NCBI GenBank assembly: GCA_030612885.1
Contig: JAUWMZ010000002.1
Span: forward strand, 5,834 to 69,833
DNA: 64,000 nucleotides
Direction: 5' to 3'
Origin: Candidatus Nealsonbacteria bacterium
GTDB taxonomy: Bacteria; Patescibacteriota; Minisyncoccia; Minisyncoccales; JAGMDC01
Position 1 is the stretch's first letter; each line of letters opens with the position of its first letter. The position numbers and the translations under genes are program-made. Under the pieces are notes generated by a model, which was given only the letters and a program-made list of their open reading frames with translations, was not told where the DNA came from and did no database searches. Of the stretch, positions 3,206 to 43,659 are shown in pieces.

Positions 3206-3967
3206 TTATAGAATAGTCGCTAATGTCATTGCTATAATTCCGGCCGTCAAAGTCGTTATGAGGTTATTTATATTTGTATCATAGTGCCTAAGGAATTTCC
3301 ATTTCCACTGTTCCAAAGTAGAGCCGAAAACGCTGTCTAACACTGCTCCAAGAAATCCACTGATAACGCAGATTCCGAATATGGTTATTGGATATCCCCA
3401 GACCAAGAGAAGCCCGCTAATTATAGTTGAACCCAGCAAGAAAGACATTAGACCTTTCGTACTTACTGCACCGGCAGTTCCGACTTTTACTCGCTTCCAT
3501 GTAATAATTGAACGAGGTTTTCCTTTGGAAGTTTGCCCTATTTCTGTTCCAAGAGTATCAGCAGCAGCCGTTGCCATCGCTGCCATCAGCCCTAAAAAAT
3601 AGAGTTGGCAGTGGATAGGATTATCTCCCGTAAATCTCGCTGTAATATAGAAAACACTAAATAGTGTTGCTGCTCCTCCATTCGCCACTACATTCAGGCA
3701 AGTTCGTGGATCCTGTGCTACCTCTCGGTATTCTTTGAGTTGTTTTTTGTAATGTGAAGCGATGTTGCCGACTACAAAAAACATCACCAAAGGCATTGCC
3801 CATTTCCAGCCGCCGGCTGATAGACACAGCAAACCGACTACTCCAGTACTGATTATCGCTGATTTATCAATCTTTTGTTTTTGGTAGGCAACATATAGAG
3901 CAATTACTGCTATTGCTAAAATACTGAGCGACGCAGGATTAACCACATTTTCTATTATTTTTTCCAT
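3206..3967 (-). CDS. DUF92/TMEM19-like integral membrane protein
   Basis: Polytopic membrane ORF with the DPRTCLNVVANGGAATLFS motif characteristic of the DUF92 (TIGR00297) family. Confidence 0.55.
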   Translation of the reverse strand: MEKIIENVVNPASLSILAIAVIALYVAYQKQKIDKSAIISTGVVGLLCLSAGGWKWAMPLVMFFVVGNIASHYKKQLKEYREVAQDPRTCLNVVANGGAATLFSVFYITARFTGDNPIHCQLYFLGLMAAMATAAADTLGTEIGQTSKGKPRSIITWKRVKVGTAGAVSTKGLMSFLLGSTIISGLLLVWGYPITIFGICVISGFLGAVLDSVFGSTLEQWKWKFLRHYDTNINNLITTLTAGIIAMTLATIL

Positions 3968-4142
3968 CCTTTACACCTCCTTTTGTTTCCATATTTTTTA
4001 ATATAATGTTCTGTTATCTCCTTTTTAGCACACTCAAAAAAATTTGACAGGGTTTGAAAATCTGCTAAACAGAAGATAGCAAGCGGAAAAAAGTTCTTTT
4101 CAAATTAAATATCCCGCTTGACTAAAAAAAAGAGGTGATAAG

Positions 4143-5078
4143 ATGACAAATCTGAATGGGATAAAAGTGAAGAACAGGCTTTTTGTTTCTTCCGGGGCTT
4201 TGGCTTATGGTTCTAAACAAAAACTGTTTATTGATCCCACTATATTTGGGGCAATAACAACCAGAACTTTAACATTGGAACAGCGACAAGGAAATTTTGG
4301 AGTTAGTCCAGTAAAACCTGATGGGATTTCAGAACAGATACTTTGGGGTATTCAGATAATAAAGAAACGGCCAACAGTTTTGCGGAAAATTCCCGGCGGA
4401 TGGATTAACGCTTTTGGTTGGTGGAATATCGGCGTTGAGAACTATATTAACGATGTTTATCCAAAAACAGAGGAAGTTTCCAAAATTGTCTCTATCGGAG
4501 GGTTTTCCATAGAAGAATATCTGGAAATGATTAGGCGGTTGAATGATTTAGCAATAATAGCCATTGAAATAGACGTCTCTTGTCCTAGTGTTAAAATTGA
4601 CTGGGAAAAAGATGTTCTTCTTTTTGGAAAGCTGATGAAGCAATGCAGAGAAACAAGCAGGCATCCTTTAATAGTAAAGCTAAGTATAAAAGGAGATTAC
4701 TTAACAAGAGCGCATATAGCAGAGGATATTGGCATAAATGCTGTTCACGCAATAAACACTATTAGGGGTTTACTCCTAAATCCGAAGACAGGAAGACCAT
4801 TACTGAAAGCAAAATATGGAGGCGTTTCAGGTGAACGGATAAAAGTGATTGCCCTGCGAGTAGTTTCTGAAATGAGACAGGAAATAGATATTCCGATTTT
4901 TGGTGGCGGAGGAATTTATAACTGGAAAGATTGTCAGCAGTTTTTCTGGGCCGGAGCTGATGCAGTAAGTTTTGGCAGTGTTCATTTTTTCCAACCCTGG
5001 AAACCAACCTGGATTGTCAGATTACATCAGAAAGAAGCAGAAAAACTTGTCCAAAAAATAAAGAAGATAAGAAAATAA
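4143..5078 (+). CDS. Dihydroorotate dehydrogenase-family flavoenzyme (PyrD-like; possibly dihydropyrimidine dehydrogenase-like)
   Basis: N-terminal substrate-tunnel region (NRLFVSSGALAYGSKQ), INAFGWWNIG, IVKLSIKGD, GGVSGERIK (GGLSG-like motif) and the FGGGGIYNWKDCQQFFWAGADAVSFGS C-terminal FMN-binding motif. Sits next to pyrF and a pyrE-like gene. Confidence 0.6.
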   Translation: MTNLNGIKVKNRLFVSSGALAYGSKQKLFIDPTIFGAITTRTLTLEQRQGNFGVSPVKPDGISEQILWGIQIIKKRPTVLRKIPGGWINAFGWWNIGVENYINDVYPKTEEVSKIVSIGGFSIEEYLEMIRRLNDLAIIAIEIDVSCPSVKIDWEKDVLLFGKLMKQCRETSRHPLIVKLSIKGDYLTRAHIAEDIGINAVHAINTIRGLLLNPKTGRPLLKAKYGGVSGERIKVIALRVVSEMRQEIDIPIFGGGGIYNWKDCQQFFWAGADAVSFGSVHFFQPWKPTWIVRLHQKEAEKLVQKIKKIRK

Positions 5079-5167
5079 AAACTATGGACGTTTATACGTC
5101 CCTTTTTTTATTGTTTTTATTGCCATATTTTTTATTGCCATACCATTTATGTTTTGCTATATTAATA

Positions 5168-5190
5168 TTAACGAGAACATTTCTCGTTAA
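5168..5190. repeat. REP-like perfect palindrome TTAACGAGAACATTTCTCGTTAA (family A), 5' of the RAYT gene
   Basis: Self-complementary 23-mer. The extended consensus AATTTAACGAGAAnnTTCTCGTTAAATT is shared with copies at 5389, 5932 and 42191. Confidence 0.8.
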
Positions 5191-5200
5191 ATTAAAATAT

Positions 5201-5935
5201 ATGTCAATAAAAAGACCCCTATTAATTAATGGTCAGATATATCATATTGTATTACGAGCAGTAGAGGGCTCAAATCTTTTCATTGATGATTATGATTATT
5301 TAAGAATAATTCATGACTTGTTTGAATTTAATGACGAAAATCCCGCTCCATCAAATTTTCGTGTTGCTCAACACTTTAGAGTATCTAATTTAACGAGAAA
5401 TGTTCTCGTTAAATTGGCAGAAAAGAAAGGAAGGGAAAAGAGAAAAATGTTAGTAGAAATTTTAGCTTTTTGTTTGATGCCAAATCACATTCATTTGCTG
5501 GTTCGCCAGCTAAGAGAAGGCGGGATTAGTAAATTTATGAGAAAGATCGGTGCAGGATATGGGCTTTACTATAATCAGAAATATGAAAGAAAAGGTCATC
5601 TATTTGGTGGAAGATACAAAATAGTCCTTATTGAGAATAATGAGCAGCTGAAGACAGTATTTGTTTATATTCATACAAATCCAGTTGCAATTATATTTCC
5701 TCATTGGAAAGAAAAGGGAATTAAAAATTTAAAAAAGGCAATGGAGTTTTTAGAGGCAAAATACAGATGGTCCAGTTATCCAGATTATTTGGGAAATACA
5801 AATTTTTCCTCATTAACCAATCGAGAATTTTTAACGAAAACAATGGAAGGGACAAAAGGCTGTAAAGAGTTTGTTAATGGTTGGTTAAAATATAAAAGGG
5901 AACTCGCTGGTTTCGAAATAGTAGCAATAAATTAA
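5201..5935 (+). CDS. REP-associated tyrosine transposase (RAYT; Y1 HUH transposase, IS200-like / Transposase_17 family)
   Basis: YHIVLRAV ... FCLMPNHIHLLV (HUH motif) ... GHLFGGRYK (catalytic Tyr) ... YIHTNPV ... WSSYPDYLG matches the widespread TnpA_REP family. The ORF-track start at 5084 reads through an upstream REP palindrome, so the ATG at 5201 (MSIKRPLL) is more plausible. The gene is flanked by REP palindromes at 5168 and 5932 and contains one internally. Confidence 0.75.
   Translation: MSIKRPLLINGQIYHIVLRAVEGSNLFIDDYDYLRIIHDLFEFNDENPAPSNFRVAQHFRVSNLTRNVLVKLAEKKGREKRKMLVEILAFCLMPNHIHLLVRQLREGGISKFMRKIGAGYGLYYNQKYERKGHLFGGRYKIVLIENNEQLKTVFVYIHTNPVAIIFPHWKEKGIKNLKKAMEFLEAKYRWSSYPDYLGNTNFSSLTNREFLTKTMEGTKGCKEFVNGWLKYKRELAGFEIVAIN
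5389..5411. repeat. REP-like palindrome TTAACGAGAAATGTTCTCGTTAA inside the RAYT coding sequence
   Basis: Same palindrome family. Translated in frame as NLTRNVLVKL within a variable loop of the transposase. Confidence 0.8.
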
Positions 5936-5954
5936 CGAGAAATGTTCTCGTTAA
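5932..5954. repeat. REP-like palindrome overlapping the RAYT stop codon
   Basis: TTAACGAGAAATGTTCTCGTTAA, with the TAA stop of the RAYT gene inside the left arm. Confidence 0.8.
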
Positions 5955-6124
5955 TTTTTGGATTGGGCGTTAAGATGTGTCCTTTTTTTAATTCTCAATC
6001 CTTGACACAATCTTAAGGGTTTGATAGGAAGAAAATAGAACCTTTTGAATAACATATGAGTTGAATGAAATATAGAGTAAAGGTTTAATAGGATGAAAAA
6101 ATTTAGGAGGTGAAAAAGAAAAAA

Positions 6125-6865
6125 ATGGGAGAGAAAAGAATTATCGTAGCTTTGGATAATGTAGAGGAACAGAAAGCATCATTGATTATGCAGGAACTAA
6201 GAGGACAAGTATATGGATTTAAGGCGAACGATTTGTTAGACAAGATTGGTCCGAGAGAGTGCATCTATTCTATTAAGCAATATGGGAGAGTGATGGCAGA
6301 TCCAAAACTTTGCGATATTCCTAATACCGTTGGAAATAGAATTGGGGTATATTTTGGTGCAGTCCAGGACCCTAACGGAGAGACAAAAGTAGTGGAAGAA
6401 TATCAAGCAAACATAGTAACAGTAATGGCTTGCGCTGGCATGCCAGCATTACAAAAGGCCGTGGAAGTAAAAGAGAAGCTTAAAGTTCCGACAGAAATAG
6501 CAGTAGTGACAGTATTGACTTCATTGAATGAGGAAGAATGCAATCTCACGCTTGGAGGACCGGTGAAAGCAAAAGTTTTGCAGTATGCTCGGAATGCAGC
6601 GTTTGCTGGATGCGACGCCATTGTTTGCTCGCCACAGGAACTTCTATTCTTAAGACAATTCCCAGAACTTGATGGTTTAAAGCGTATCATTCCGGGGATT
6701 AGGCCGAAAGGAGCAAAAGTGAATGACCAAAAAAGAATAGATACCCCGGAGGAAGCAGTAAGAAACGGAGCAGACAGAATAGTGATGGGCCGAGCGATAA
6801 CGGAAAGCGATGATCCATTGGGCGTTGTTCAGAGCATCAATAAATCTATTGAGAATATAGGTTGA
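6125..6865 (+). CDS. pyrF: Orotidine-5'-phosphate decarboxylase
   Basis: RIIVALD N-terminus and the ODCase signature K-x-x-DIPNT (DPKLCDIPNTV). AGGAGGTG RBS upstream of the ATG at 6125; the ORF-track start at 6110 is a GTG inside the RBS. Confidence 0.75.
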   Translation: MGEKRIIVALDNVEEQKASLIMQELRGQVYGFKANDLLDKIGPRECIYSIKQYGRVMADPKLCDIPNTVGNRIGVYFGAVQDPNGETKVVEEYQANIVTVMACAGMPALQKAVEVKEKLKVPTEIAVVTVLTSLNEEECNLTLGGPVKAKVLQYARNAAFAGCDAIVCSPQELLFLRQFPELDGLKRIIPGIRPKGAKVNDQKRIDTPEEAVRNGADRIVMGRAITESDDPLGVVQSINKSIENIG

Positions 6866-6927
6866 AAAGATTTTGTCGGGTGTTTCTTTTTTTGCCCGAC
6901 TGTAAATTTTTAGGAGGTGAAAAAAAA

Positions 6928-7626
6928 ATGGATATAGAAGAAGCAAGACATATAATGTCTTTAGGAGAAGTAAGTCGAGAAGTGAAGGATATGTTTGAGA
7001 TATGCAATGCTTTGTGGATTTATCAAGGATCACCGAATGAACCCCATGCTCTTTTAACAAAAGGAGGACATAGTGACGCATATTTCAATGTAAACGCAGT
7101 GACTCAATTTCCGAATTTCCGACGGCGGTTAGGATTGGACATAATGCTAAAGTTAGCGGATGCAGGGATTATAATGAAAGACGTAGATGTGGTGGTGTCG
7201 TCAACTTATGCCGCTACTTCTATTGGACAGGAAGTAGCAGATTATTTGGACGCAATGTTTGTTTTTACAGAAAAAGACGGAAAGGACCAAATATGGTCCG
7301 GGAGATTTGAGATTCCTTCTGGAGCCAGAGTATTACAAGTCGAAGAGCTAATTACTACTTTGAGTACTACCGAGAAAGTGAGAGGAGCGGTATTGAAAGA
7401 TAATTCTGATCCAGTTGAGTTTATAGAAAAAGATGGAAAAGTAGTAGTGGCTACGATTGTTCATCGACCGTCAAAGTTACCAATGAACTATTCCAGCTAC
7501 GAAGTCATGGCATTGATGGAAGTGGAGGTTCATAATTGGGATCCTGAAGAATGTCCGCTCTGTAAACAAGGATCGGAAGCATTGAAACCAAAACCAAATT
7601 GGCAGAAGTTTTTACAGGAAACCTAG
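6928..7626 (+). CDS. Type I phosphoribosyltransferase, orotate PRTase-like (PyrE-like) with C-terminal CxxC zinc ribbon
   Basis: PRPP-binding motif VLQVEELITTLSTTEK, which corresponds to VLLVDDVITTGGT with DD replaced by EE. N-terminal GGHSDAYFN region. AGGAGGTG RBS before the ATG at 6928. C-terminal CPLCKQG. Confidence 0.55.
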   Translation: MDIEEARHIMSLGEVSREVKDMFEICNALWIYQGSPNEPHALLTKGGHSDAYFNVNAVTQFPNFRRRLGLDIMLKLADAGIIMKDVDVVVSSTYAATSIGQEVADYLDAMFVFTEKDGKDQIWSGRFEIPSGARVLQVEELITTLSTTEKVRGAVLKDNSDPVEFIEKDGKVVVATIVHRPSKLPMNYSSYEVMALMEVEVHNWDPEECPLCKQGSEALKPKPNWQKFLQET

Positions 7627-7740: not shown

Positions 7741-8382
7741 ATGAGAAAAACAAAATTTATTGCTTTGGCAATTATTGCATTATCATTTTTGATTGGCATT
7801 TATTTTTACAACATGATGCCAGAGATAATGGCTTCGCATTGGAATGCCCAAGGTGAGGTTGATGGCTATATGACAAAATTTTGGGCTTTGTTTTTGATGC
7901 CCTTAATGTCTTTGGGATTGCTTTTACTTTTTCTGGTGATTCCCAAAATTGATCCCTTAAAACAAAATATTGAAAAATTCAGAAAATACTTTGATATGTT
8001 TATTGTCTTGATGCTTGGTTTTCTGTTTTATGTTTATCTGCTGACTATTTTTTGGAATCTTGGCATTAGATTCAGTATGACGCAACTGATGATTCCAGCT
8101 ATGGCCGCTTTATTCTATTACTGCGGAATTTTAGTGGAAAATGCCAAAAGAAACTGGTTTATTGGAATTAGAACTCCCTGGACATTGAGCAGTGAAAAGG
8201 TCTGGGAGAAAACTCATAAACTGGGCGGTAAGCTATTCAAAGGCGCTGGTCTGATTATTCTTTTGGGATTTGTTTTGGAAAGTTACGCCTTGCTTTTTAT
8301 TTTAGTCCCAGTATTGTTTGTTAGTATTTATCTAATTGTTTATTCATATCTTGAATATCAAAAAGAAGTAAGAAATAATTGA
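7741..8382 (+). CDS. SdpI/YhfL-family (DUF1648) membrane protein
   Basis: N-terminal TM helix, the PEIMASHWNAQGEVDGYMTK motif typical of DUF1648, and 4 TM helices. Confidence 0.5.
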   Translation: MRKTKFIALAIIALSFLIGIYFYNMMPEIMASHWNAQGEVDGYMTKFWALFLMPLMSLGLLLLFLVIPKIDPLKQNIEKFRKYFDMFIVLMLGFLFYVYLLTIFWNLGIRFSMTQLMIPAMAALFYYCGILVENAKRNWFIGIRTPWTLSSEKVWEKTHKLGGKLFKGAGLIILLGFVLESYALLFILVPVLFVSIYLIVYSYLEYQKEVRNN

Positions 8383-8384
8383 AA

Positions 8385-8409
8385 TCAACGAGAACCGTTC
8401 TCGTTGATT
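8385..8409. repeat. REP-like palindrome variant ATCAACGAGAACCGTTCTCGTTGAT
   Basis: Perfect 25-bp palindrome sharing the ACGAGAAC..GTTCTCGT core with family A, located in an intergenic position. Confidence 0.7.
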
Positions 8410-8429
8410 TTTGTTGATTTATAGACATT

Positions 8430-9962: not shown

Positions 9963-9990
9963 AGTTTCTTGTGGATAACCTCGGATTTTC

Positions 9991-10023
9991 AACGGCGGAG
10001 GCAAAATTTGACGCCGTTTTTTC
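9991..10023 (+). terminator. Probable rho-independent terminator
   Basis: AACGGCG ... CGCCGTT 7-bp stem (14-nt loop) followed by TTTTTTC. Confidence 0.45.
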
Positions 10024-10048
10024 ATCGGAGTAAAATGAAATAATATAT

Positions 10049-13000
10049 ATGAAAAACAAAATTACCAAAATTAAAAAAAGAGACGGCAAAATAGTTAATT
10101 TTGAGCAAGATAAAATTACCAAAGCGGTTTATAAGGCCCTTACTTCCAGCGGCCAGGGCGATGGGAAAAAATCAAAAAGAGTTTCCAATAGAGTTCTTCA
10201 GATTTTGGACAGGAGGTTTAAGAAAGATGAAGTTCCTACTGTAGAACAGATTCAAGATATTGTTGAAGAAGTTTTAATTTTAGAAAATTTAGTAGAAACA
10301 GCTAAGACATATATACTTTATCGGGAGCAGAGAAGAAGAATAAGGGAAGCAATTACGGTAAGCGAGGAAGCAGTAGATAGAGTTGACCAGTATTTGGGAA
10401 AACTGGACTGGGAGGTTCAGGAAAATGCTAATATGGCTTTTTCCTTGCAGGGCTTGAACCATTACGGTGTCACTTATATCATAAAAAAATACTGGCTTAA
10501 TAAAATTTATCCCAAGACGATAAGAGAAGTCAATGAATCAGGCGATTTGCATCTTCATGATTTGGATTCCTTAGCATGCTACACTTTTTTTGGTAGAGAG
10601 GTAGTAATTGTCAAATTAAATGGTCAGATTAAATTAATTTCTTTGAAAGATCTCTATGAAGAACTTTCACAACCCGAGGTTTTGCTGAACAGAAAAGATG
10701 AGGCCTTTGCTAAGTATCCAAAAAACCTTTATATTTTAGATAAAAATGATTGGACAAAAGTTCCTCGAATGGTAAGGAAAAAAAGAAAAAGAAAAATGCG
10801 ATTTATCAAATCCGAACAGGGCAGGAGTGTTATTGTTACTGATAATCACCCCTTTATCATAAAAGGGAAGGAGAAAGAAAAGGAAATTATGGTTGAAGCG
10901 AAAAAAGTTAAAGAAAAAGAAAATTCAGTGTTTTCGGCTTTTATTCCAAATTTATTGAAATCTGAAAATTTATTTTCTAAAAGATATTTATATTTAGCCG
11001 AAGAGTTAGTTAATAAAAAATATCAAGACTTCTTTTTAGAAGGATTTGCGTGGCAGGACTTTATCAAAAATTGGCAAGGATCTCTAAAAATTGAAGGGAC
11101 ATTAAGTACCTCAAATAGCGCTAACAGTTTAAATAATAAATTGGAGCTCACTGAAGATTTAGGTTATTTAGTGGGTTTTTTTATTGCGGAAGGTAATTAT
11201 GATAGTTGGAAATTATGCATTACTAACGATGACAACAAAACAATTAAAAAAATTCAAAGAATTTGTGCTAATTTAGGAATAAGAAGCTACTTAAATAAAA
11301 ATAAAGAAAGAACTAAACAAATTAATATTAGCAGCAGCACCCTAAAACTTGTCTTTGAGAAAGTTTTTCAAATAAAGCCGTTAAGCATAAATAAAAATTT
11401 ACCGGCAGATATTCTAAACTATAATTTAGATTTTGTTAAAGGAGTAATTGCTGGAATTATTGACGGAGATGGTAGTGTATATCCAGATAACAAAGCCCAT
11501 GGCGCTTCCCAGGTTTTAATTAGAGTTTCTTCCAGGACAATGCTTGAACAAATAGCAACTTTACTTCAATTTTTCGGAATTATTGCCAGAAGCGGAGCAA
11601 ATATTGAAGATATCGGTAAAAGTAAGATTTTTCGAGGAAGAGAGATTGTCCAAAATTATCCTATCTACCGATTAAATTTTTCGAAAAAGAAAGGTGTTGA
11701 TTTTCCTTCTTCTAAATATAAACAGGCGAAGATAGCTGAAAGACATTGGAGAGCAGAAGAATACGGCTGGAATAAAGTTTTGAATAATAAATTTACTACA
11801 ATTCCAGATGATACAATTTACGATATTACCACTGACTCTTCTACTTTTTTAGCCAATGGGCTTTTGGTTCATAATTGTATGGGTTGGGATTTATATGATC
11901 TTTTACTGAAAGGATTTGGCGGTGTTTCAGGAAAAGTAGAAACAAAGCCAGCCAAACATTTCAGAGCAATTTTAGGTCAGGCAGTGAATTTCTTATATAC
12001 AGTCCAGGGCGAATGCGCTGGCGCGATCGCTTTTTCAAATTTTGATACTCTTTTAGCGCCTTTTATTCGCTACGACAATTTGAATTATCAGCAAGTGAAA
12101 CAGTCCCTTCAGGAATTTTTATTCAATATGGCCGTACCTACCCGGGTCGGCTTCCAATGTCCTTTTTCGAATGTCACTTTAGACCTTAAACCCTCTTCGG
12201 TTTTTTCTAATCAGCCGGTTATCATTGGCGGCAAACCGCAGAAAGAAACATATGGCGAGTTTGGGGAGGAAATGAAAATTTTTAACAGAGCTTTTTATGA
12301 AATAATGCTGGAAGGAGATAAATCAGGAAGACCGTTTCATTTTCCTATTCCAACTATAAATATCACTAAAGATTTTCCCTGGGATGAGCCGGCTTTTGAT
12401 GGTGTGTTTGAAGCATCAGCAAAGTACGGAACTAATTATTTTAGTAACTATATTAACTCGGAGATGAAACCAGAAGATGTGCGTTCCATGTGTTGTCGTC
12501 TTAGGTTAGACATGACAGAACTTCACAACCGGGGTGGCGGAGGGTTATTTGGTTCAGGAACATTAACCGGTTCAATCGGCGTGGTCACCATTAATTTACC
12601 AAGGATTGGTTATCTTTCAAAAACCAAAAAAGAATTCTTTAAACAACTTGAAAAAATGATGGATTTAGCAAGAGAAAGTTTAGAAATAAAAAGAAAAACT
12701 ATTGAGGATTTCATTTCCAAAGGTTTATACCCGTATTCCAAATTTTATTTATCAGGCATTAAAAAGGCGCGCAATACCTATTTCGCCAATCATTTTTCAA
12801 CCATAGGTTTGATAGGAACGAATGAAGCAATTTTGAATTTCTTAGGTGAAAACATTGGTTCCCGCAGAGGCAAAAAATTCGCCTTGGAAATTTTAGATTT
12901 TATGAGAGAGAAACTAGTGAAATATCAAAAAGAAACTGGCAATATTTATAACTTAGAACAAACTCCAGCAGAAAGCACAAGTTATAGATTGGCTTTAAAA

Positions 13001-13508: not shown

Positions 13509-14225
13509 ATGCTTATCGGTGGTTTACAAAAAGTTACTTTAATTGATTATCCGGGCAAGGTTGCTTGCACGGTTTTTTTAATGGGCTGTAATTTTCGCTG
13601 TCCTTTTTGTTATAGCGGTGAACTTGTTTTGCCAAAAGAAATAAAAAAACAGCCAAGAATTTCAGAAAAAGTTTTTTTTGATTTTTTAAAAGAAAGGCAA
13701 GGATTATTAGAAGGAGTTGTTCTGTGCGGCGGCGAGCCGACTATTTCTGAAGATTTATTGGAATTCTGCCAGAAAATAAAAAAATTAGGATATTTGGTGA
13801 AATTAGATACTAATGGTTCAAACCCAAAAATGATTGAGAAATTGATAAAAGAAAGATTGATAGATTATGTGGCAATGGATATTAAAGCGCCGCAAAATAA
13901 ATATGGTTTTTGTTCAGGGAATAAAGCAGACATTAAAAATATCAAAAAAAGTGTTGAGTTTTTAAAGCAGGGAAAAATTGACTTTGAATTTAGGACTACG
14001 GTAGCTCCGGGATTAAGTGAATCAGATTTTTTAGAGATAGCTAACTGGATAGGGGTCCCTTCGACAAACTCAGGGCAAGCTCCAAAGTATTTTCTTCAGG
14101 AGTTTAATTCTCAAAAGCCGGTTTTAAATCCAGAAATTCTTAAACTTCCTGTTTTGAAACGAGAAGACATTGAGAAAGCTATTGAAACGATAAAACCAAA
14201 ATTTCAAACCTGCAAATTAAGATAA
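13509..14225 (+). CDS. nrdG: Anaerobic RNR activating protein (radical SAM)
   Basis: GCNFRCPFCY (CxxxCxxC) with the VVLCGGEPT motif, immediately downstream of nrdD. Confidence 0.8.
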   Translation: MLIGGLQKVTLIDYPGKVACTVFLMGCNFRCPFCYSGELVLPKEIKKQPRISEKVFFDFLKERQGLLEGVVLCGGEPTISEDLLEFCQKIKKLGYLVKLDTNGSNPKMIEKLIKERLIDYVAMDIKAPQNKYGFCSGNKADIKNIKKSVEFLKQGKIDFEFRTTVAPGLSESDFLEIANWIGVPSTNSGQAPKYFLQEFNSQKPVLNPEILKLPVLKREDIEKAIETIKPKFQTCKLR

Positions 14226-15718
14226 TGACTGCTTCTAAGATATTGCTTTGTTTTTGTTTATCTTTTATCATAGGAATTTTTTTCCCCGCACCTTTTGAAC
14301 TCAAAAGGTGCGGGGTTGATTTTTCTTTAGTAATATTATTTTTTCTGATTTTGGGAATTTTGTTAATCTCCGTTCCGCCTTTTTCCAAGAGAAGGGGATT
14401 GATAATTCTAGGATTTTGTATTTTATTTTTATCAGCAGGAATTTATCGCCAAGGGATTGCTGAATTAGAAATTACAAACAATGAAATGAAAAAGTATAAT
14501 GATTCAGAACAGAGCATTATTTTAATCGGAGAAGTTGTAAAAGAGCCGGATGTCAGGGATACTAACACAAAATTAACAGTAAGAGTGAAAGAAAGCAAAG
14601 TTTTAATTACTATCAAAAAATATCCTCAATATCAGTATGGAGATAAATTGGAAATTAAAGGAAAATTGGAGAGCCCGGCAGTTTTTGAGGACTTCAATTA
14701 CAAAGATTATTTAGCCAAAGATGGAATTTATTCAGTAATGTATTATCCAGGAATAGAGCTGTTAGAAAGAAAAAATTACACAGGTCTGACCTGTGTAATT
14801 TATAAAGGGATTTTTGGTTTTAAAAATAAATTAAGAGAATCAATTTTTCAAAATCTTTCGCCGCCCCAGTCCTCAATTTTAGGAGCCATAATTCTGGGTG
14901 ATAAAAGGCAGATTTCAGAACAATGGAAAGAGAAATTAAATATTACCGGTACCAGACATATTACCTGCGTATCAGGTATGCATATTATTATTCTGGCTGG
15001 GATTTTAATGTGGCTGGGAATGGCTTTAGGTCTTTGGCGGACTCAGGCGTTTTATTTTGCCATTATTTTTCTTGTTTTATTTATTGTGATGGTCGGCGCT
15101 CCTCCTTCAGCAGTCAGGGCCGGTATTATGGGCGGCCTTTTACTCTTGGCTCAATATTTGGGAAGAATGAATACTTCTTCCAGAGCAATTGTTTTTGTAG
15201 CAGCAGCAATGTTAGCCGCTAATCCCTTACTCCTTAAATCAGATGTCGGTTTCCAATTATCATTTTTAGCTGTTATGGGCATTATTTATTTAATGCCCAT
15301 TTTTCAAAATTGGTTGAAAAAGATTCCTTTAGAATCTCTTAAAAATATTCTTGCTATGACTCTATCGGCCCAGGTTTTTACTTTACCGATTTTAATTTAT
15401 AATTTCGGCTACATGTCTTTGGTTTCATTAATTACTAATATTTTAATTGTGCCATTGGTTCCTTTTATTATGATTTTTGGTTTTGTTTCCGGGTTATTAG
15501 GCATAGTTTGGCAGACCTTGGGCTGGGTTTTTTCCTGGCCTGCTTGGTTTTTGCTGACTTATGTTACGAAAATTATTGATTTCTTTTCTCAATTGCCTTT
15601 TGCCTATTTGACCATAGAAAACATCTCTTGGCTCTGGCTTTTAATCGCTTATTCAATTTTAGCTACCATCACTTGGCACTTAAACGAAAAACAAAAACTA
15701 AAGTTCTTGGAATATTGA
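14225..15718 (+). CDS. comEC: ComEC/Rec2-family DNA internalisation channel protein (DUF4131 plus competence domain; no beta-lactamase domain)
   Basis: Polytopic membrane protein with an OB-fold-like periplasmic segment and the competence-domain motif ITGTRHITCVSGMHIIILAG. Confidence 0.7.
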   Translation: MTASKILLCFCLSFIIGIFFPAPFELKRCGVDFSLVILFFLILGILLISVPPFSKRRGLIILGFCILFLSAGIYRQGIAELEITNNEMKKYNDSEQSIILIGEVVKEPDVRDTNTKLTVRVKESKVLITIKKYPQYQYGDKLEIKGKLESPAVFEDFNYKDYLAKDGIYSVMYYPGIELLERKNYTGLTCVIYKGIFGFKNKLRESIFQNLSPPQSSILGAIILGDKRQISEQWKEKLNITGTRHITCVSGMHIIILAGILMWLGMALGLWRTQAFYFAIIFLVLFIVMVGAPPSAVRAGIMGGLLLLAQYLGRMNTSSRAIVFVAAAMLAANPLLLKSDVGFQLSFLAVMGIIYLMPIFQNWLKKIPLESLKNILAMTLSAQVFTLPILIYNFGYMSLVSLITNILIVPLVPFIMIFGFVSGLLGIVWQTLGWVFSWPAWFLLTYVTKIIDFFSQLPFAYLTIENISWLWLLIAYSILATITWHLNEKQKLKFLEY

Positions 15719-21947: not shown

Positions 21948-22049
21948 AATGCCGAGAACGGTTCTCAATGATTGGGGTTGACATTTATTTAGGATTATTT
22001 ACTATAGATAATAGATGTGGATAATATAGTTCTTTTATGATATAAAGTT

Positions 22050-40186: not shown

Positions 40187-41265
40187 AAAAGATTTTAATT
40201 ATTTCTATCATTTTTATTTTATGCGGAAGCGGCTTGGCTCAAGCCTTGGTTTTAGATGATTTTGTGAACAATCAAGCTCCCAGTGCTTATTTTTATCCCC
40301 AAGAGTTTGATAAATTAGTAATGGATTTGACTATTTCTTCAGTGATAGATGGAACAGACAAACTTTCAGCCATCACTATAAAAAATACTGGGACAACTAA
40401 AAACAGAGATGATATTGAAAAGTTTAAACTTTGGAAAGATGCTGATGAGCCAGGTTTTCAGGGAATGGGAAAAGATAAAGAATTAGGCACTTTTACTTAT
40501 TATGCTTCAGATATAAGTTGGTATTTATCAGGTCTTGAAGAATCAGTCCCGGCAGAAGGTTTGAGAATTTTCATCAGCGCTGAGATTGCCAAAAACCCTA
40601 CCAGTAATCGCTCCCTTCAAATACAAATACCTTCTTTGTCTGATAAGAACAATAATGGAATTTTTGATTTGGGAGATTTAGGTATTTTTATGGAATCAAA
40701 AAACAATGGTCTTATTGATGAAGCCATTGTTAATTCCTATTCTCAAACAATCCGCGATTTTGTTATTGATAATCTTGCTCCAAAAACAGTTATTACTGAT
40801 CCAGAAGATAATTCAATAATTACTACTGAAAGCTACTTTATTAAAGGCGTATCCCGAGACCAAGGTGGTTCAACCCCTTCTTGGGTAAAGATTTCTATAA
40901 ACGATGGCGATTGGCAAGAAGTGGAAGCAATTGGCTCCAATTATTCTACTTGGCAGTATCTCTGGCAGAATTATACAGAAGGTGTTTTTACAATAAAAAC
41001 TCAATCAGAGGATTGGATAGGCAATAGAGAAACAATAGGCGATGAAATTACAGTAAGTGTTGATTTTCCAGAGGAACCGGGTGAAGAAGAAGAGCCAGAG
41101 GAAGAAGCTGAAGAAGAAATTATTGAAGAAGAAGTAACAGAGGAGGAAAAGCTAATTTCAGAAATGACAGAACAAGAACTTAAAGCGAAAATTATTGAAG
41201 TTCAGCAAAAAATTATTGAGCTTTTAAAACAGTTAATTCAACTTATTCAGTCAGAATTAATCTGA
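40183..41265 (+). CDS. Secreted protein with Ig-like beta domains and an acidic, coiled-coil C-terminus
   Basis: Signal peptide MKKILIISIIFILCGSGLAQA, a poly-E tract and a terminal coiled coil. Confidence 0.55.
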   Translation: MKKILIISIIFILCGSGLAQALVLDDFVNNQAPSAYFYPQEFDKLVMDLTISSVIDGTDKLSAITIKNTGTTKNRDDIEKFKLWKDADEPGFQGMGKDKELGTFTYYASDISWYLSGLEESVPAEGLRIFISAEIAKNPTSNRSLQIQIPSLSDKNNNGIFDLGDLGIFMESKNNGLIDEAIVNSYSQTIRDFVIDNLAPKTVITDPEDNSIITTESYFIKGVSRDQGGSTPSWVKISINDGDWQEVEAIGSNYSTWQYLWQNYTEGVFTIKTQSEDWIGNRETIGDEITVSVDFPEEPGEEEEPEEEAEEEIIEEEVTEEEKLISEMTEQELKAKIIEVQQKIIELLKQLIQLIQSELI

Positions 41266-43659
41266 TAAAGGTTCAAAACCCATCTCCTTTAAGAACTCAT
41301 TTATAGATGTTCTATATTCTGGATAGAATCGAGATATTTCCATAGCTTCTTTTTTCGCTTTTTCAAAATCACCTAATTCTTTATAGCAAGCAGCTAAATT
41401 AATACGGTATTGGACATTATTCATATTTATTTCTTTTAATTTGTAGTTGATATCACATATTGCCGGATAATCTCCAATACTTAAATAAACCTTGCGAAGC
41501 TCTAAAAGAGAATTTTCAGAATGTACGGGGTAGTTTTTTTGCTCAGCGATATTAATATTTTCCTGGGCTTTTTCAGTTTCATTTGAGTAAATATTGATTA
41601 AAGCTAAAATCCACCAGCATTCGCCTAATTCTGGATTTAAATTAATACATTTTTGAGCTTTTTCCTCGGCTCCTTTATAATCAGCAATCCAAAGATAAGT
41701 TTTTGCCCAGCTAATAAATATTTCTTGACGTTTTGGGCTTAGCTGCTCAGCTTGCTCAAAACATTTATTGGCTTGGTTTTTCCATTCTTCAACAAGTTCC
41801 GGATAAGCATTTTGATAATTTTCAAGCAAGATATTATAATAAGCTCCAAGAATAAGCCAATATCTTGTATAGCTTGGCCTTATTTCTATACTCTCTTTGA
41901 GAATTTCAATTCCTCTAGGCGCTAATCTAATGGTTTTTAAGGGTTCTCTTTGGATATAGGTATTAATGATATTGATATAATTTGCCCTTATATAATCATC
42001 CAAGAAAGTATGAACAGGCAGGATGTTTTCCATTCGCTTTACAGCGTCTTCGCATTGTCCTCTATTGGCGTTGTAGACAGCAACATTGCTCTCTTTGTTA
42101 ATTTGGAAAGGTTTAATATTATAAGCCCAGATAAACCAGATAAGCCCAATAAAGAGCAGGGGAACGATTATATTTCTATATTTATACAATTTAACGAGAA
42201 CATTTCTCGTTAAATTTAAATTGTATTCAATTTTATTCGTGGAATTCGCATTATATATTATGTGTAAAGAATAAGCAATTAATAAGAAAGAGATTAAATA
42301 AGTTGAAAATATATCAAAGCTGAAAAAATTAGCAGTAAGATAAGCTAAAAAAGTGGCTTGGAGTCCGTGGCAAATTAGAATTTGTTCAGGCCGCTTTTTT
42401 TTAATTTTCTGCAGTCCCCAAAATAAAACAGCAAAAAGCAAGAGATAAATTATTAAAGCCAGAATACCGGAGCTAACTCCTATATCAAATAAAAAGCTAT
42501 GTGCTCTGTCATACCAGGTTACAGGGATTGGTTCAGCAAGCATACTCATTCTGGCTAAAGATGGATCGTAATGTTTATCAAAAGCAATGGAGAAATTTTC
42601 TGGTCCGTAGCCAAGAATTGGTCTTTCTATTAACCCTTTTGAAGATATTTTCCAGACAGAAAATCGCGGGTCATCTAAAAATAAGCTAATTGAGAGCCGG
42701 GGTTTTAATTCTTGAAAAAGTTGATTTTCTTGAATAAATTGAGGAAGCTTTCCAGAAGTAGTGTTTATACAATAAATTCCATAAGCGCCGAGGATTAGAA
42801 GAATCCCGAAAAGCGCTTTTAACCAAACTATTTTTTTAGGATGGTGGTTCAACACGTTAAGTAATCTTCCATTTGGCGGAATTACTGCAGAGGTGTATTT
42901 GACAGGATAAAAAAAGAAAAAATAAGAAAAACCAATTATTAAACCGAGATAGGCAGCCCTGGCTCCGGTAATCAAGATTATAAAAAGAAACAATAAGAGA
43001 AAGGAGAAGTAAAAAAACTTTTTTTTAGTTTTTTGTTGTAGACCAAAAGCTAAAGTCAAAAAACTTAGAAGCAAAAGATAAATTGCTAAAAAGCTTGAGC
43101 CGCCGATGGTTGACCAAGGACTACCGGTTGTAACAAAGATATGACTAAGGATTTTAAGGTGCTGAAAAATAGCGATAATTGAGACAAAAATTCCAATAAT
43201 TATACTAAAATTCCAGATTTTTTGCCAGTCAGATTTTCGGAGAATTAAAAAGGCTAAAATAGCAAAGATTATGTAGAAAGCGAAATTAAGAAATCCGCCG
43301 GAACGGTAAGGAGAACCCCAAAAACTGAAAGCAGGGTTTTGGGAAAGCAGGGTAGCCAAAAAGTGAACTCCCAAAAGAGCCACTAAAAGCCAGAAAGCCA
43401 AGAAAACTTTACTTTGCTTATTTAATATATTTTTAATAATCAATGATAAATTATCATTTAATCTTTGGAAGAGAATTTGCCATAGAAAGACAAAAATTAT
43501 TAGAGATAAAATAATCCTAAAGACAATGGTTTTCCCCCAGTCAGGCGGCGAGAACCAAGGAGGCAAATTCCAAAGAGGCAGAGTCAAAATTAAAAAAAAT
43601 CCGATTAAGTAAATCCATTTAAATTTATTTTCAGAAAAAATTGCTTTATTATTTTCCAT
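41257..43659 (-). CDS. O-antigen ligase (Wzy_C)-domain polytopic membrane protein with C-terminal TPR repeats
   Basis: About 12 TM helices with the GARAAYLGLIIG Wzy_C-type motif, and C-terminal TPR repeats (cf. PglL/WaaL-like proteins fused to TPR). Contains an in-frame REP palindrome at 42191..42213. Confidence 0.65.
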   Translation of the reverse strand: MENNKAIFSENKFKWIYLIGFFLILTLPLWNLPPWFSPPDWGKTIVFRIILSLIIFVFLWQILFQRLNDNLSLIIKNILNKQSKVFLAFWLLVALLGVHFLATLLSQNPAFSFWGSPYRSGGFLNFAFYIIFAILAFLILRKSDWQKIWNFSIIIGIFVSIIAIFQHLKILSHIFVTTGSPWSTIGGSSFLAIYLLLLSFLTLAFGLQQKTKKKFFYFSFLLLFLFIILITGARAAYLGLIIGFSYFFFFYPVKYTSAVIPPNGRLLNVLNHHPKKIVWLKALFGILLILGAYGIYCINTTSGKLPQFIQENQLFQELKPRLSISLFLDDPRFSVWKISSKGLIERPILGYGPENFSIAFDKHYDPSLARMSMLAEPIPVTWYDRAHSFLFDIGVSSGILALIIYLLLFAVLFWGLQKIKKKRPEQILICHGLQATFLAYLTANFFSFDIFSTYLISFLLIAYSLHIIYNANSTNKIEYNLNLTRNVLVKLYKYRNIIVPLLFIGLIWFIWAYNIKPFQINKESNVAVYNANRGQCEDAVKRMENILPVHTFLDDYIRANYINIINTYIQREPLKTIRLAPRGIEILKESIEIRPSYTRYWLILGAYYNILLENYQNAYPELVEEWKNQANKCFEQAEQLSPKRQEIFISWAKTYLWIADYKGAEEKAQKCINLNPELGECWWILALINIYSNETEKAQENINIAEQKNYPVHSENSLLELRKVYLSIGDYPAICDINYKLKEINMNNVQYRINLAACYKELGDFEKAKKEAMEISRFYPEYRTSINEFLKEMGFEPLSD
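42191..42213. repeat. REP family A palindrome TTAACGAGAACATTTCTCGTTAA inserted in frame inside the Wzy/TPR gene
   Basis: Identical to the 5168 copy including the AATT..AAATT flanks. Translated as NLTRNVLVKL in the linker between the Wzy and TPR domains. Confidence 0.8.

Follow-up and report, generated by a model that had tools for sequence, protein, structure and literature searches.

A Y1/HUH nuclease gene of a Patescibacterium and its cognate palindrome, kept in front of the gene, in its reading frame and at its stop codon

Introduction

Why would a bacterium with a small genome keep a gene for a Y1 nuclease of the HUH type that has the same short palindrome in front of it, inside it and at its end? 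The question is raised by a locus in Candidatus Nealsonbacteria (GenBank assembly GCA_030612885.1, contig JAUWMZ010000002.1, positions 5,834 to 69,833 of the forward strand). The whole stretch of 64,000 nucleotides (nt) was analyzed and is called the window below; coordinates given without a locus number refer to it. The original prediction had taken the locus for a classic pair of a repetitive extragenic palindromic sequence (REP) and its REP-associated tyrosine transposase (RAYT), with more copies of the palindrome dispersed through the window. Here we report that the three palindromes are conserved across a family of Patescibacterial Y1 genes, that they change together within a locus and that the item conserved inside the gene is the DNA. 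We think it probable that enzyme and palindrome form a pair of the REP/RAYT type.

Results

The Y1/HUH gene and its palindromes

The gene and the palindromes are as follows, where UP, IN and DN denote the copies upstream of the start codon, inside the gene and at its end.

5201-5935, + strand: Y1/HUH nuclease gene, 244 amino acids (aa) plus stop; based on PF01797, motifs, structural model and dN/dS
5168-5190, no strand: UP palindrome TTAACGAGAA-CAT-TTCTCGTTAA; folding energy (dG) -10 kcal/mol, z -5.8
5387-5415 (core match 5390-5412): IN palindrome AATTTAACGAGAA-ATG-TTCTCGTTAAATT; in frame in the Y1 open reading frame (ORF)
5929-5957 (core match 5932-5954): DN palindrome AAATTAACGAGAA-ATG-TTCTCGTTAATTT; end of the Y1 gene
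8382-8410 (core 8385-8407): solo variant palindrome AAATCAACGAGAAC-C-GTTCTCGTTGATTT; intergenic, dG -12.4 kcal/mol
42188-42216 (core 42191-42213, loop CAT): solo palindrome with the stems of IN; in frame in the Wzy_C/TPR gene 41257-43659 (- strand)

The ORF had been listed at 5084-5935. Its first 39 codons are non-coding because all homologues begin, with MSIKRP or MPIKRP, at the equivalent of the ATG at 5201, which is the real start. With this start the reading of the copy at 5168 as coding falls; the core of the internal copy starts at 5390. The product matches the Pfam family PF01797 (Y1_Tnp) at residues 60-159 with 48 bits against a cut-off of 23 and has the Y---NP signature, and the motifs HIHLL, GRYK and WSSYPDYLG named in the original prediction are all present, so that its assignment to the Y1/HUH transposase family is borne out. 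The HUH motif is NHIH (H96, H98), the catalytic tyrosine is Y156 in YIHTNP and the C-terminal region contains RWSSYPDYLG. Residues H96, H98, Y156, H158, N160 and P161 are invariant among 69 sequences from two subfamilies.

An AlphaFold model based on an alignment of these 69 sequences had a mean predicted local distance difference test score (pLDDT) of 86 and a predicted template modeling score (pTM) of 0.83; it was used instead of a model with 20 close homologues, which was unusable (pLDDT 42). The best structural match of the model in the PDB is 4ER8, the E. coli TnpAREP-REP complex (~16% identity), followed by the TnpA proteins of IS608, IS200 and ISDra2 (2A6M, 2F4F, 2XMA). By sequence, a PDB search gave only a marginal match to ISDra2 (E 0.09). 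The only segment modeled with low confidence, residues 50-80, holds the peptide encoded by IN.

There is one Y1 gene in the window. Comparison with its orthologue at locus L087 of the metagenome set described below gave a ratio of nonsynonymous to synonymous divergence (dN/dS) of 0.125 at a dS of 0.31. Because of this ratio and the orthologous position in L087, the gene is intact, resident and under purifying selection. Homologues are annotated as Patescibacteria (Nealsonbacteria, Parcubacteria, Paceibacterota) and belong to a family with thousands of members: at 50% identity and E<1e-30 they form 431 clusters, and one subfamily by itself gave more than 7,800 matches.

The pattern TTAACGAGAA-NNN-TTCTCGTTAA has five matches in the window (33% G+C) compared with 0.00 expected from 100 shuffles. 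The layout that had been proposed, with the same perfect palindrome at both ends of the gene and inside it, therefore stands except for its 2-nt loop: a pattern with a 2-nt spacer had no match in the window and was replaced by one with a 3-nt loop, and the perfect stem of UP, which ends 10 nt before the ATG, is only 10 bp long. The further copies proposed at 8385 and 42191 were both matched by the 3-nt-loop pattern. At IN, DN and the two solo sites the perfect stems are 13-14 bp long (29-mers). All five copies fold into stable DNA hairpins (dG -10 to -12.4 kcal/mol, z -5.8 to -9.4). The peptide encoded by IN is NLTRNVLVKL, the left arm of DN provides the TAA stop codon of the gene (5933-5935) and the copy at 8385 (TCAACGAGAACCGTTCTCGTTGA) has a compensated T>C/A>G change in its outer stem. 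A degenerate copy proposed at 21953 shows no fold (z -0.28), has only GAGAAC-GTTCTC in common with the others and was rejected as a member. No Rfam family at the gathering threshold and no tRNA gene was found across the 64-kb window.

Three palindrome sites are kept across the family

To put these sites in a wider frame we used a metagenome scan of 80 loci with homologues 53-76% identical, collapsed to 67 genes at 95% nucleotide identity, and scored hairpins of at least 8 pairs. UP was found in 58 of the 63 testable genes (median -37 from the ATG; interquartile range (IQR) -46 to -33), IN in 59 of 67 (median +179 from the ATG; IQR 172-184) and DN in 61 of 67 (median +2 from the stop), and 47 of the 67 genes have all three. 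Because the same layout recurs in related genes with lineage-specific palindromes, it is not a chance insertion but a conserved variant of the REP/RAYT system. The internal copy is thus no incidental third copy but a conserved element whose position is fixed throughout this Patescibacterial family.

The palindrome sequence varies by lineage (for example TGCCGAGAA.., ATGTAACGAGGA.., ACAACGAAGC.., GTCGGGATC.. and TAGCGGGAAC..), and the copies agree within a locus. Median identity between copies is 87.5% within a locus compared with 58% between loci, and in 45 of 57 loci IN is at least 80% identical to UP or DN, a level reached by 6% of between-locus pairs. Across the family the palindromes share one build, namely conserved AAT/ATT ends, a variable segment of 4-5 bp and a conserved inner core that is mostly ACGAGAAC (CGAGAA-type).

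The stems are symmetric and only the loop shows orientation. UP and DN are inverted in the window (loop CAT versus ATG); in the family they are inverted at 27 loci, direct at 16 and otherwise at 8, and by these counts the inverted orientation of REPtrons is not conserved. Nor is loop orientation among UP, IN and DN conserved across the family. A few genes have additional palindromes: an inverted, REPIN-like doublet lies ~370 nt downstream of one gene (L076, ~1400-1460), two loci (L045, L042) have overlapping or double DN copies, and two different palindrome types follow one gene at L060.

Each gene has its own set of palindromes

Locus L049 contains two Y1 paralogues 6 kb apart (3563-4333 and 9970-10735), with 39% and 62% identity to the window protein. 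The palindrome is TGATGGATATC-G-GATATCCATCA at UP, IN and DN of one gene and CGGGGTCCGACCCCG at the three sites of the other, and there is no mixing between the two sets. In L087 the outer stem is shifting from TTAACG/CGTTAA to TTGACG/CGTCAA; both arms have changed at UP, and IN and DN have the same single-arm change. This suggests that the copies change together rather than independently. The evolution of the copies is concerted and compensatory.

The conserved item is DNA, not peptide

We examined covariation in a 13-pair helix over an unfitted alignment of 59 IN sites, using 500 shuffles and helices with partners slid by 1-3 columns as controls. Paired cells made up 87% of the IN helix compared with 69.5% in shuffles and 37-41% after sliding. 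Cells that had changed on both sides numbered 128, versus 36 in shuffles and 19-31 after sliding. The covariation score was 0.448, versus 0.148 in shuffles (none of 500 reached 0.448) and ~0.08 after sliding. G-U pairs are rare in the helix. Over UP, IN and DN together there was no sense-strand bias for G-T over A-C mismatches (25 of each), and sense-strand RNA structure, for which an excess of G-U was expected, was rejected. Given the lack of G-T bias among transition mismatches, we see no evidence for a structure in mRNA only. A DNA hairpin on either strand and a duplex palindrome are both compatible with these data.

IN falls between helix alpha-A and the HUH strand, in the protein's one hypervariable linker. 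At 50 loci IN is read in frame A (x-T/P/S-R-x-V/F-L-x, as in NLTRNVLVKL) and at nine loci one frame over, in frame B (YENSSRS). The linkers of distant representatives have recurring peptides (EVGL, EVQP, GSDP, RGRTS). We predicted that these are palindromes of the type CGAGGTC-N-GACCTCG read in other frames and then checked this on the DNA of a second subfamily (41-50% identical; Brennerbacteria and Parcubacteria included). The prediction was confirmed. In this subfamily EVGL is encoded by palindromes of the type GGAAGTC-G-GACTTCC at +172 to +178, with matching palindromes at -45 to -58 and at the stop codon, and the third reading frame of IN is used. The conserved item at IN is therefore DNA and not peptide.

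Dispersed copies

Outside the Y1 gene, the window has two extra copies in 63 kb. In 385 kb of homologue flanks we found 13 copies of the locus-specific palindrome outside the Y1 gene (0.34 per 10 kb), where we estimate that ~0.007 extra copies would be expected by chance. Exact copies of the window palindrome were also present on four contigs of a Paceibacterales metagenome-assembled genome (MAG) and, in one case, in a MAG of Parcubacteria; no Y1 gene lies within 4 kb of any of them.

At least four solo copies are intragenic, and many solo copies keep the frame of their host gene. Examples are those in the gene for a Wzy_C/TPR membrane protein of the window and, in MAGs, in genes for alanyl-tRNA synthetase (AlaRS) and a ComEC-like protein. 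The copy at 42188-42216 falls within an 800-aa ORF with full-length homologues, in the loop between the Wzy_C domain and the TPR region, and again encodes NLTRNVLVKL; the same peptide recurs because only one of the three frames of the window palindrome is open. The orthologous loop contains a 29-nt palindrome of the CCGAGAAC type at the same residue position in L089 (11357-11385; 54% identity), a 42-nt perfect palindrome in L095 (2965-3006) and an imperfect one of ~40 nt in L096 (~4420-4480), and the other Wzy_C/TPR orthologues have no palindrome in that loop. These loop palindromes reflect either a hot spot or turnover in place. The host loops of intragenic copies are themselves variable, and exact insertion boundaries are not definable for them. 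In L095 the Wzy_C gene with the 42-nt palindrome is followed, ~40 nt beyond its stop codon, by a palindrome of the second-subfamily type (GGTTTGTTGAAGTC-C-GACTTCAATAAACC, L095:3979-4007).

The intergenic palindrome at 8382-8410 begins with the last base of the stop codon of an SdpI-like ORF (7741-8382), and a radical-SAM gene follows 19 nt on. The window also contains a second kind of perfect 29-nt palindrome, AAATTACACAGGTC-T-GACCTGTGTAATTT at 14773-14801, which is built alike (A/T ends, a 1-nt loop) around a different core. A ComEC-like gene (14225-15718) holds it in frame (KNYTGLTCVIYK), in the stretch that links its DUF4131 and Competence domains. This palindrome occurs once in the window, where there is no second Y1 gene, and it may go with a paralogous gene in another part of the genome.

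The locus and its transcription unit

Two further features of the locus bear on its transcription.

5135-5163, + strand: sigma-70-like promoter, TTGCCA-17 nt-TG-TATATT (extended -10); 10/12 matches, a consensus match only
5965-5990 (5965-5982 plus T7), + strand: intrinsic terminator, GGGCGTTAAGATGTGTCC followed by T7

The transcription start predicted from this promoter (~5170) is inside the left arm of UP. At many homologue loci a -10-like box, judged by eye, directly abuts the UP hairpin. To judge from its sequence, 5965-5990 is likely the real terminator of the Y1 transcript, and DN was rejected in this role because this separate intrinsic terminator lies just downstream of it. A terminator that resembles it (GGACGTTTATACGTCC+T7, 5086-5110) ends the upstream DHO_dh gene, so that the two bracket the Y1 cassette as direct repeats, an arrangement also seen in L087. 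They may be a trace of the arrival of the cassette or simply a common type of terminator. We did not take them up as a target-site duplication because there are only two copies and their loop lengths differ.

The original prediction placed the gene in a string of pyrimidine genes. Pfam matches agree for the upstream neighbor (DHO_dh, pyrD-like) and the downstream one (OMPdecase, pyrF); the ORF at 6862-7623, which had been labeled pyrE-like, has no Pfam match, leaving that label without Pfam support. No tnpB is adjacent to the Y1 gene. In L087 the gene order (CDF transporter, DHO_dh, Y1, region upstream of pyrF) is that of the window. L087 has in addition a 139-aa ORF between DHO_dh and Y1 (L087:2504-2923, versus window 5065-5128) and genes for a 177-aa protein and a 99-aa helix-turn-helix (HTH) protein between Y1 and the pre-pyrF region (3957-4840, versus window 5997-6124), and the window has a DUF92 gene (3206-3967) that L087 lacks. 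Because the two loci differ by gene insertions around Y1, the gene sits in a small indel-rich zone. Synteny with the pyr genes is not kept among distant homologues and was found only in the close relative L087.

Among near-identical Y1 genes, both testable flanks were the same in most clusters. In four pairs from different samples (L073/L075, L056/L061, L013/L014, L019/L018) homology of the flanks is lost 24-360 nt upstream of the ATG. The divergence of these four near-identical pairs makes the cassette's upstream edge a breakpoint that recurs at the strain level.

Discussion

A nuclease and its hairpin, and the alternatives

On balance, we favor as probably correct the reading that this Patescibacterium has a REP/RAYT-type pairing of a hairpin-specific Y1 (HUH) single-stranded DNA (ssDNA) nuclease with its cognate palindrome, in a layout undescribed for the class. 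To judge from sequence comparison, the best explanation would include that the gene is a resident, single-locus and selectively maintained ('domesticated') relative of transposases. The enzyme would recognize the palindrome when it is extruded as a hairpin on ssDNA, as TnpAREP and IS608 TnpA do. Nicking and rejoining at the hairpin would seed dispersed copies and maintain the likeness of all copies within a genome. Through UP, and perhaps through IN as well, the protein would limit its own expression.

Several points weigh against this reading. The protein scores 45.9 bits with the RAYT equivalog of NCBIfam (NF047646), below the cut-off of 80. Neither GTAG nor GTGG, the forms of the GT[AG]G guide, is present at any of the five window copies, and the flanks in the family are AAT/ATT only. 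The stems are perfect, not imperfect. Canonical REPs are extragenic and number more than ~100 per genome, whereas two solo copies were seen in 63 kb of the window and 13 in the 385 kb of homologue flanks. That genes with only 54% identity have solo copies at orthologous positions argues that at least some copies are old, stable and not recently moved. Binding of the hairpin and its cleavage are supposed by homology to a structure with ~16% identity (4ER8), and the copying mechanism and autoregulation are likewise supposed. A symmetric palindrome with a freely flipping loop would equally suit a dimeric binder of double-stranded DNA (dsDNA), and IN might persist only because the linker tolerates it.

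A further step can be proposed tentatively, and we hold it to be possible but doubtful: that IN is an obligatory cis site, with the enzyme binding or nicking its own coding sequence and its transcription start. The locus would then be an ancient self-addressing module, for autoregulation or copy-out, found Patescibacteria-wide, and the same activity would overwrite old palindromes in place. Overwriting, if true, would explain why all copies in a genome, including those in frame in housekeeping loops, follow the current type of the lineage, and why mutations appear in several copies at once. We know of no RAYT for which action on its own ORF or conversion of resident hairpins has been demonstrated.

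Could the palindromes instead work without any nicking or copying? They might do so in the mRNA, as a stabilizing stem-loop at the 5' end, a site of pausing or processing within the message and a stem-loop at the 3' end, or in dsDNA, as operators bound by a regulator that forms dimers and that may be the Y1 protein itself. In favor of this, the transcription start is predicted to fall within UP and the terminator follows shortly after DN, the perfect symmetry and free loop orientation are as for an operator that binds a dimer, and a role as RNA elements downstream of genes is on record for REPs (PMC3733652). However, identical 29-mers in Wzy_C/TPR, AlaRS and ComEC genes and at other intergenic sites would be left unexplained. 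Sense-strand mismatches compatible with G-U are not in excess and few G-U pairs occur, an intrinsic terminator distinct from DN lies beyond it, and the catalytic HUH and tyrosine residues, which a mere repressor would not need, are invariant. We therefore consider this explanation unlikely.

It is less likely again that the ~790-bp unit from UP to DN is an autonomous, mobile insertion sequence (IS) of the IS200/IS605 kind, with subterminal hairpins as its ends and IN as a by-product. The unit is IS200-sized and hairpin-bounded, synteny is not kept among distant homologues, strain-level breakpoints occur 24-360 nt upstream of the gene in four populations, similar terminators surround the cassette as direct repeats and many homologue matches are on short contigs. 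Against this, the tyrosine motif is Y---NP (class 2, TnpAREP) and not the Y---Q of IS200, there is a single copy in 64 kb with no adjacent tnpB, and the gene occupies an orthologous position in a relative at a dS of 0.31, with a dN/dS of 0.125. Both testable flanks are the same in most near-identical clusters, the exceptions being the four pairs. Moreover, both ends are one symmetric palindrome rather than distinct left and right ends, and the dispersed item is the bare 23-29-nt palindrome and never the cassette.

That the palindromes are passive relics, generic selfish or slippage-generated hairpins that accumulate where tolerated without a functional link to Y1, is very improbable even though unrelated palindromes also occur in coding loops (14773 in ComEC; the 42-nt one in the Wzy_C loop of L095) and the IN peptide lies in a disordered linker, since the same three positions are filled in ~88-92% of 67 diverged genes and in the second subfamily, copies match within a locus, paralogues keep their own sets of three and the chance expectation is near zero.

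Significance

The host role of RAYTs is still open, and here a RAYT-like gene is under purifying selection in streamlined genomes of ~1 Mb. With its probable recognition site in its own promoter, coding sequence and stop codon, the enzyme and its site come as a compact unit that can be synthesized and tested. Hundreds of such pairs of enzyme and hairpin occur naturally in the family, their main difference being a segment of 4-5 bp, and one genome has two orthogonal pairs. Together they are a ready data set for hairpin recognition by HUH enzymes and for orthogonal HUH tags. The locus is also a case of DNA structure overriding protein sequence, because the same palindrome is kept while it is translated in three frames.

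Comparison with known systems

One annotation mention aside, we found no link between Y1/TnpAREP proteins and Patescibacteria in the literature, and no description of a fixed set of sites at transcription start, ORF and stop codon, of covariation in an intragenic copy, of the use of three frames or of a RAYT/REP system in this phylum; literature coverage was incomplete and this is not proof of absence.

A close likeness is to REPtrons, in which a TnpAREP/RAYT gene is flanked by REPs or bacterial interspersed mosaic elements (BIMEs), as in E. coli and Pseudomonas (PMC2817692, PMC3333891, PMC3479197). The motif Y---NP marks class 2 (TnpAREP-like) and Y---Q marks class 1 (IS200) (Quentin 2018, PMC6006769); the Y1 protein, with YIHTNP, has the class 2 motif. 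As in a REPtron, the gene is flanked on both sides by a hairpin that is also found elsewhere, both in the window and in the family (UP in 58 of 63 genes, DN in 61 of 67). The likeness includes a Y1/HUH protein with Y---NP and 4ER8 as best structural match, a genome-specific hairpin of its own that brackets the gene and has dispersed copies, an own hairpin family for each paralogue, and a low-copy gene under purifying selection. By contrast, the GT[AG]G guide is missing, the stem is neither bulged nor imperfect and inverted orientation is not fixed; the hairpin is a perfect, A/T-ended 29-bp palindrome. Copy density is, by our estimate, ~4-10x lower than in E. coli or Pseudomonas, and copies are often intragenic. 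The protein is ~80 aa longer, has a WSSY C-terminal region, falls below the NCBIfam RAYT cut-off and comes with a conserved intragenic copy. Of the classic REP/RAYT arrangement in the original prediction, the bracketing by the gene's own palindrome and the dispersed copies hold; the word classic does not, given the RAYT score, the missing GT[AG]G, the symmetric stems, the relative orientation of the flanking copies, which is not conserved, and the few dispersed copies, several of them intragenic.

In subclass 2.4 (Bertels group 4; Cyanobacteria and Bacteroidetes) REPs occur in frame within tnpAREP (PMC6006769). This gene likewise has frame-keeping copies inside a nuclease gene, in a peripheral and variable region of the protein. 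Here, however, the site precedes the HuH strand (residues 62-72 versus H96) and has no GTAG, and we do not place the gene in this subclass. The copy is also fixed at ~+179 nt in 88% of diverged genes, shows covariation and is read in three frames, and in the layout we describe the in-gene copy always goes with copies on the transcription start and the stop codon.

Subclass 2.1 (TIRYT) is the best fit, by motifs and length only: NH[IV]H, 'FQ' for WQ, Y[IV]HxNP, ~238 aa and an 'SS' proximal tail. Members reportedly have no REP-like sequence nearby, GGGGWSAS terminal inverted repeats and a DnaA-like or HTH C-terminus (PMC3733652, PMC6006769). A Pfam scan at E<=0.1 found no HTH family (Bac_DnaA_C, HTH_23, HTH_28) in our protein and GGGGWSAS repeats were not found at the flanks, which speaks against membership of this subclass.

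Domesticated RAYTs, in the sense of Bertels 2017, are reportedly single-copy, vertically inherited and housekeeping-like in their evolution. The window has a single Y1 gene, whose place in L087 is orthologous and whose dN/dS is 0.125; distant homologues are non-syntenic and four pairs diverge upstream.

IS200 hairpins double as expression controls. Elements of the IS200/IS605 group (IS608, ISDra2) resemble the locus in their HUH/Y1 fold, their hairpin-bounded gene and their unit size. They differ in that the locus has Y---NP and not Y---Q, one copy, the same palindrome at both ends, no tnpB and an orthologous position, and we do not count it among them.

Finally, Rickettsia palindromic elements (RPEs) and intragenic REPs are short palindromic repeats in frame in the loops of housekeeping proteins (PMC3733652). 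The palindromes of this family are far smaller, at 23-29 nt or ~8-10 codons, and each type goes with a cognate Y1 gene next to it; in addition, a given loop of one gene carries different palindromes in different lineages.

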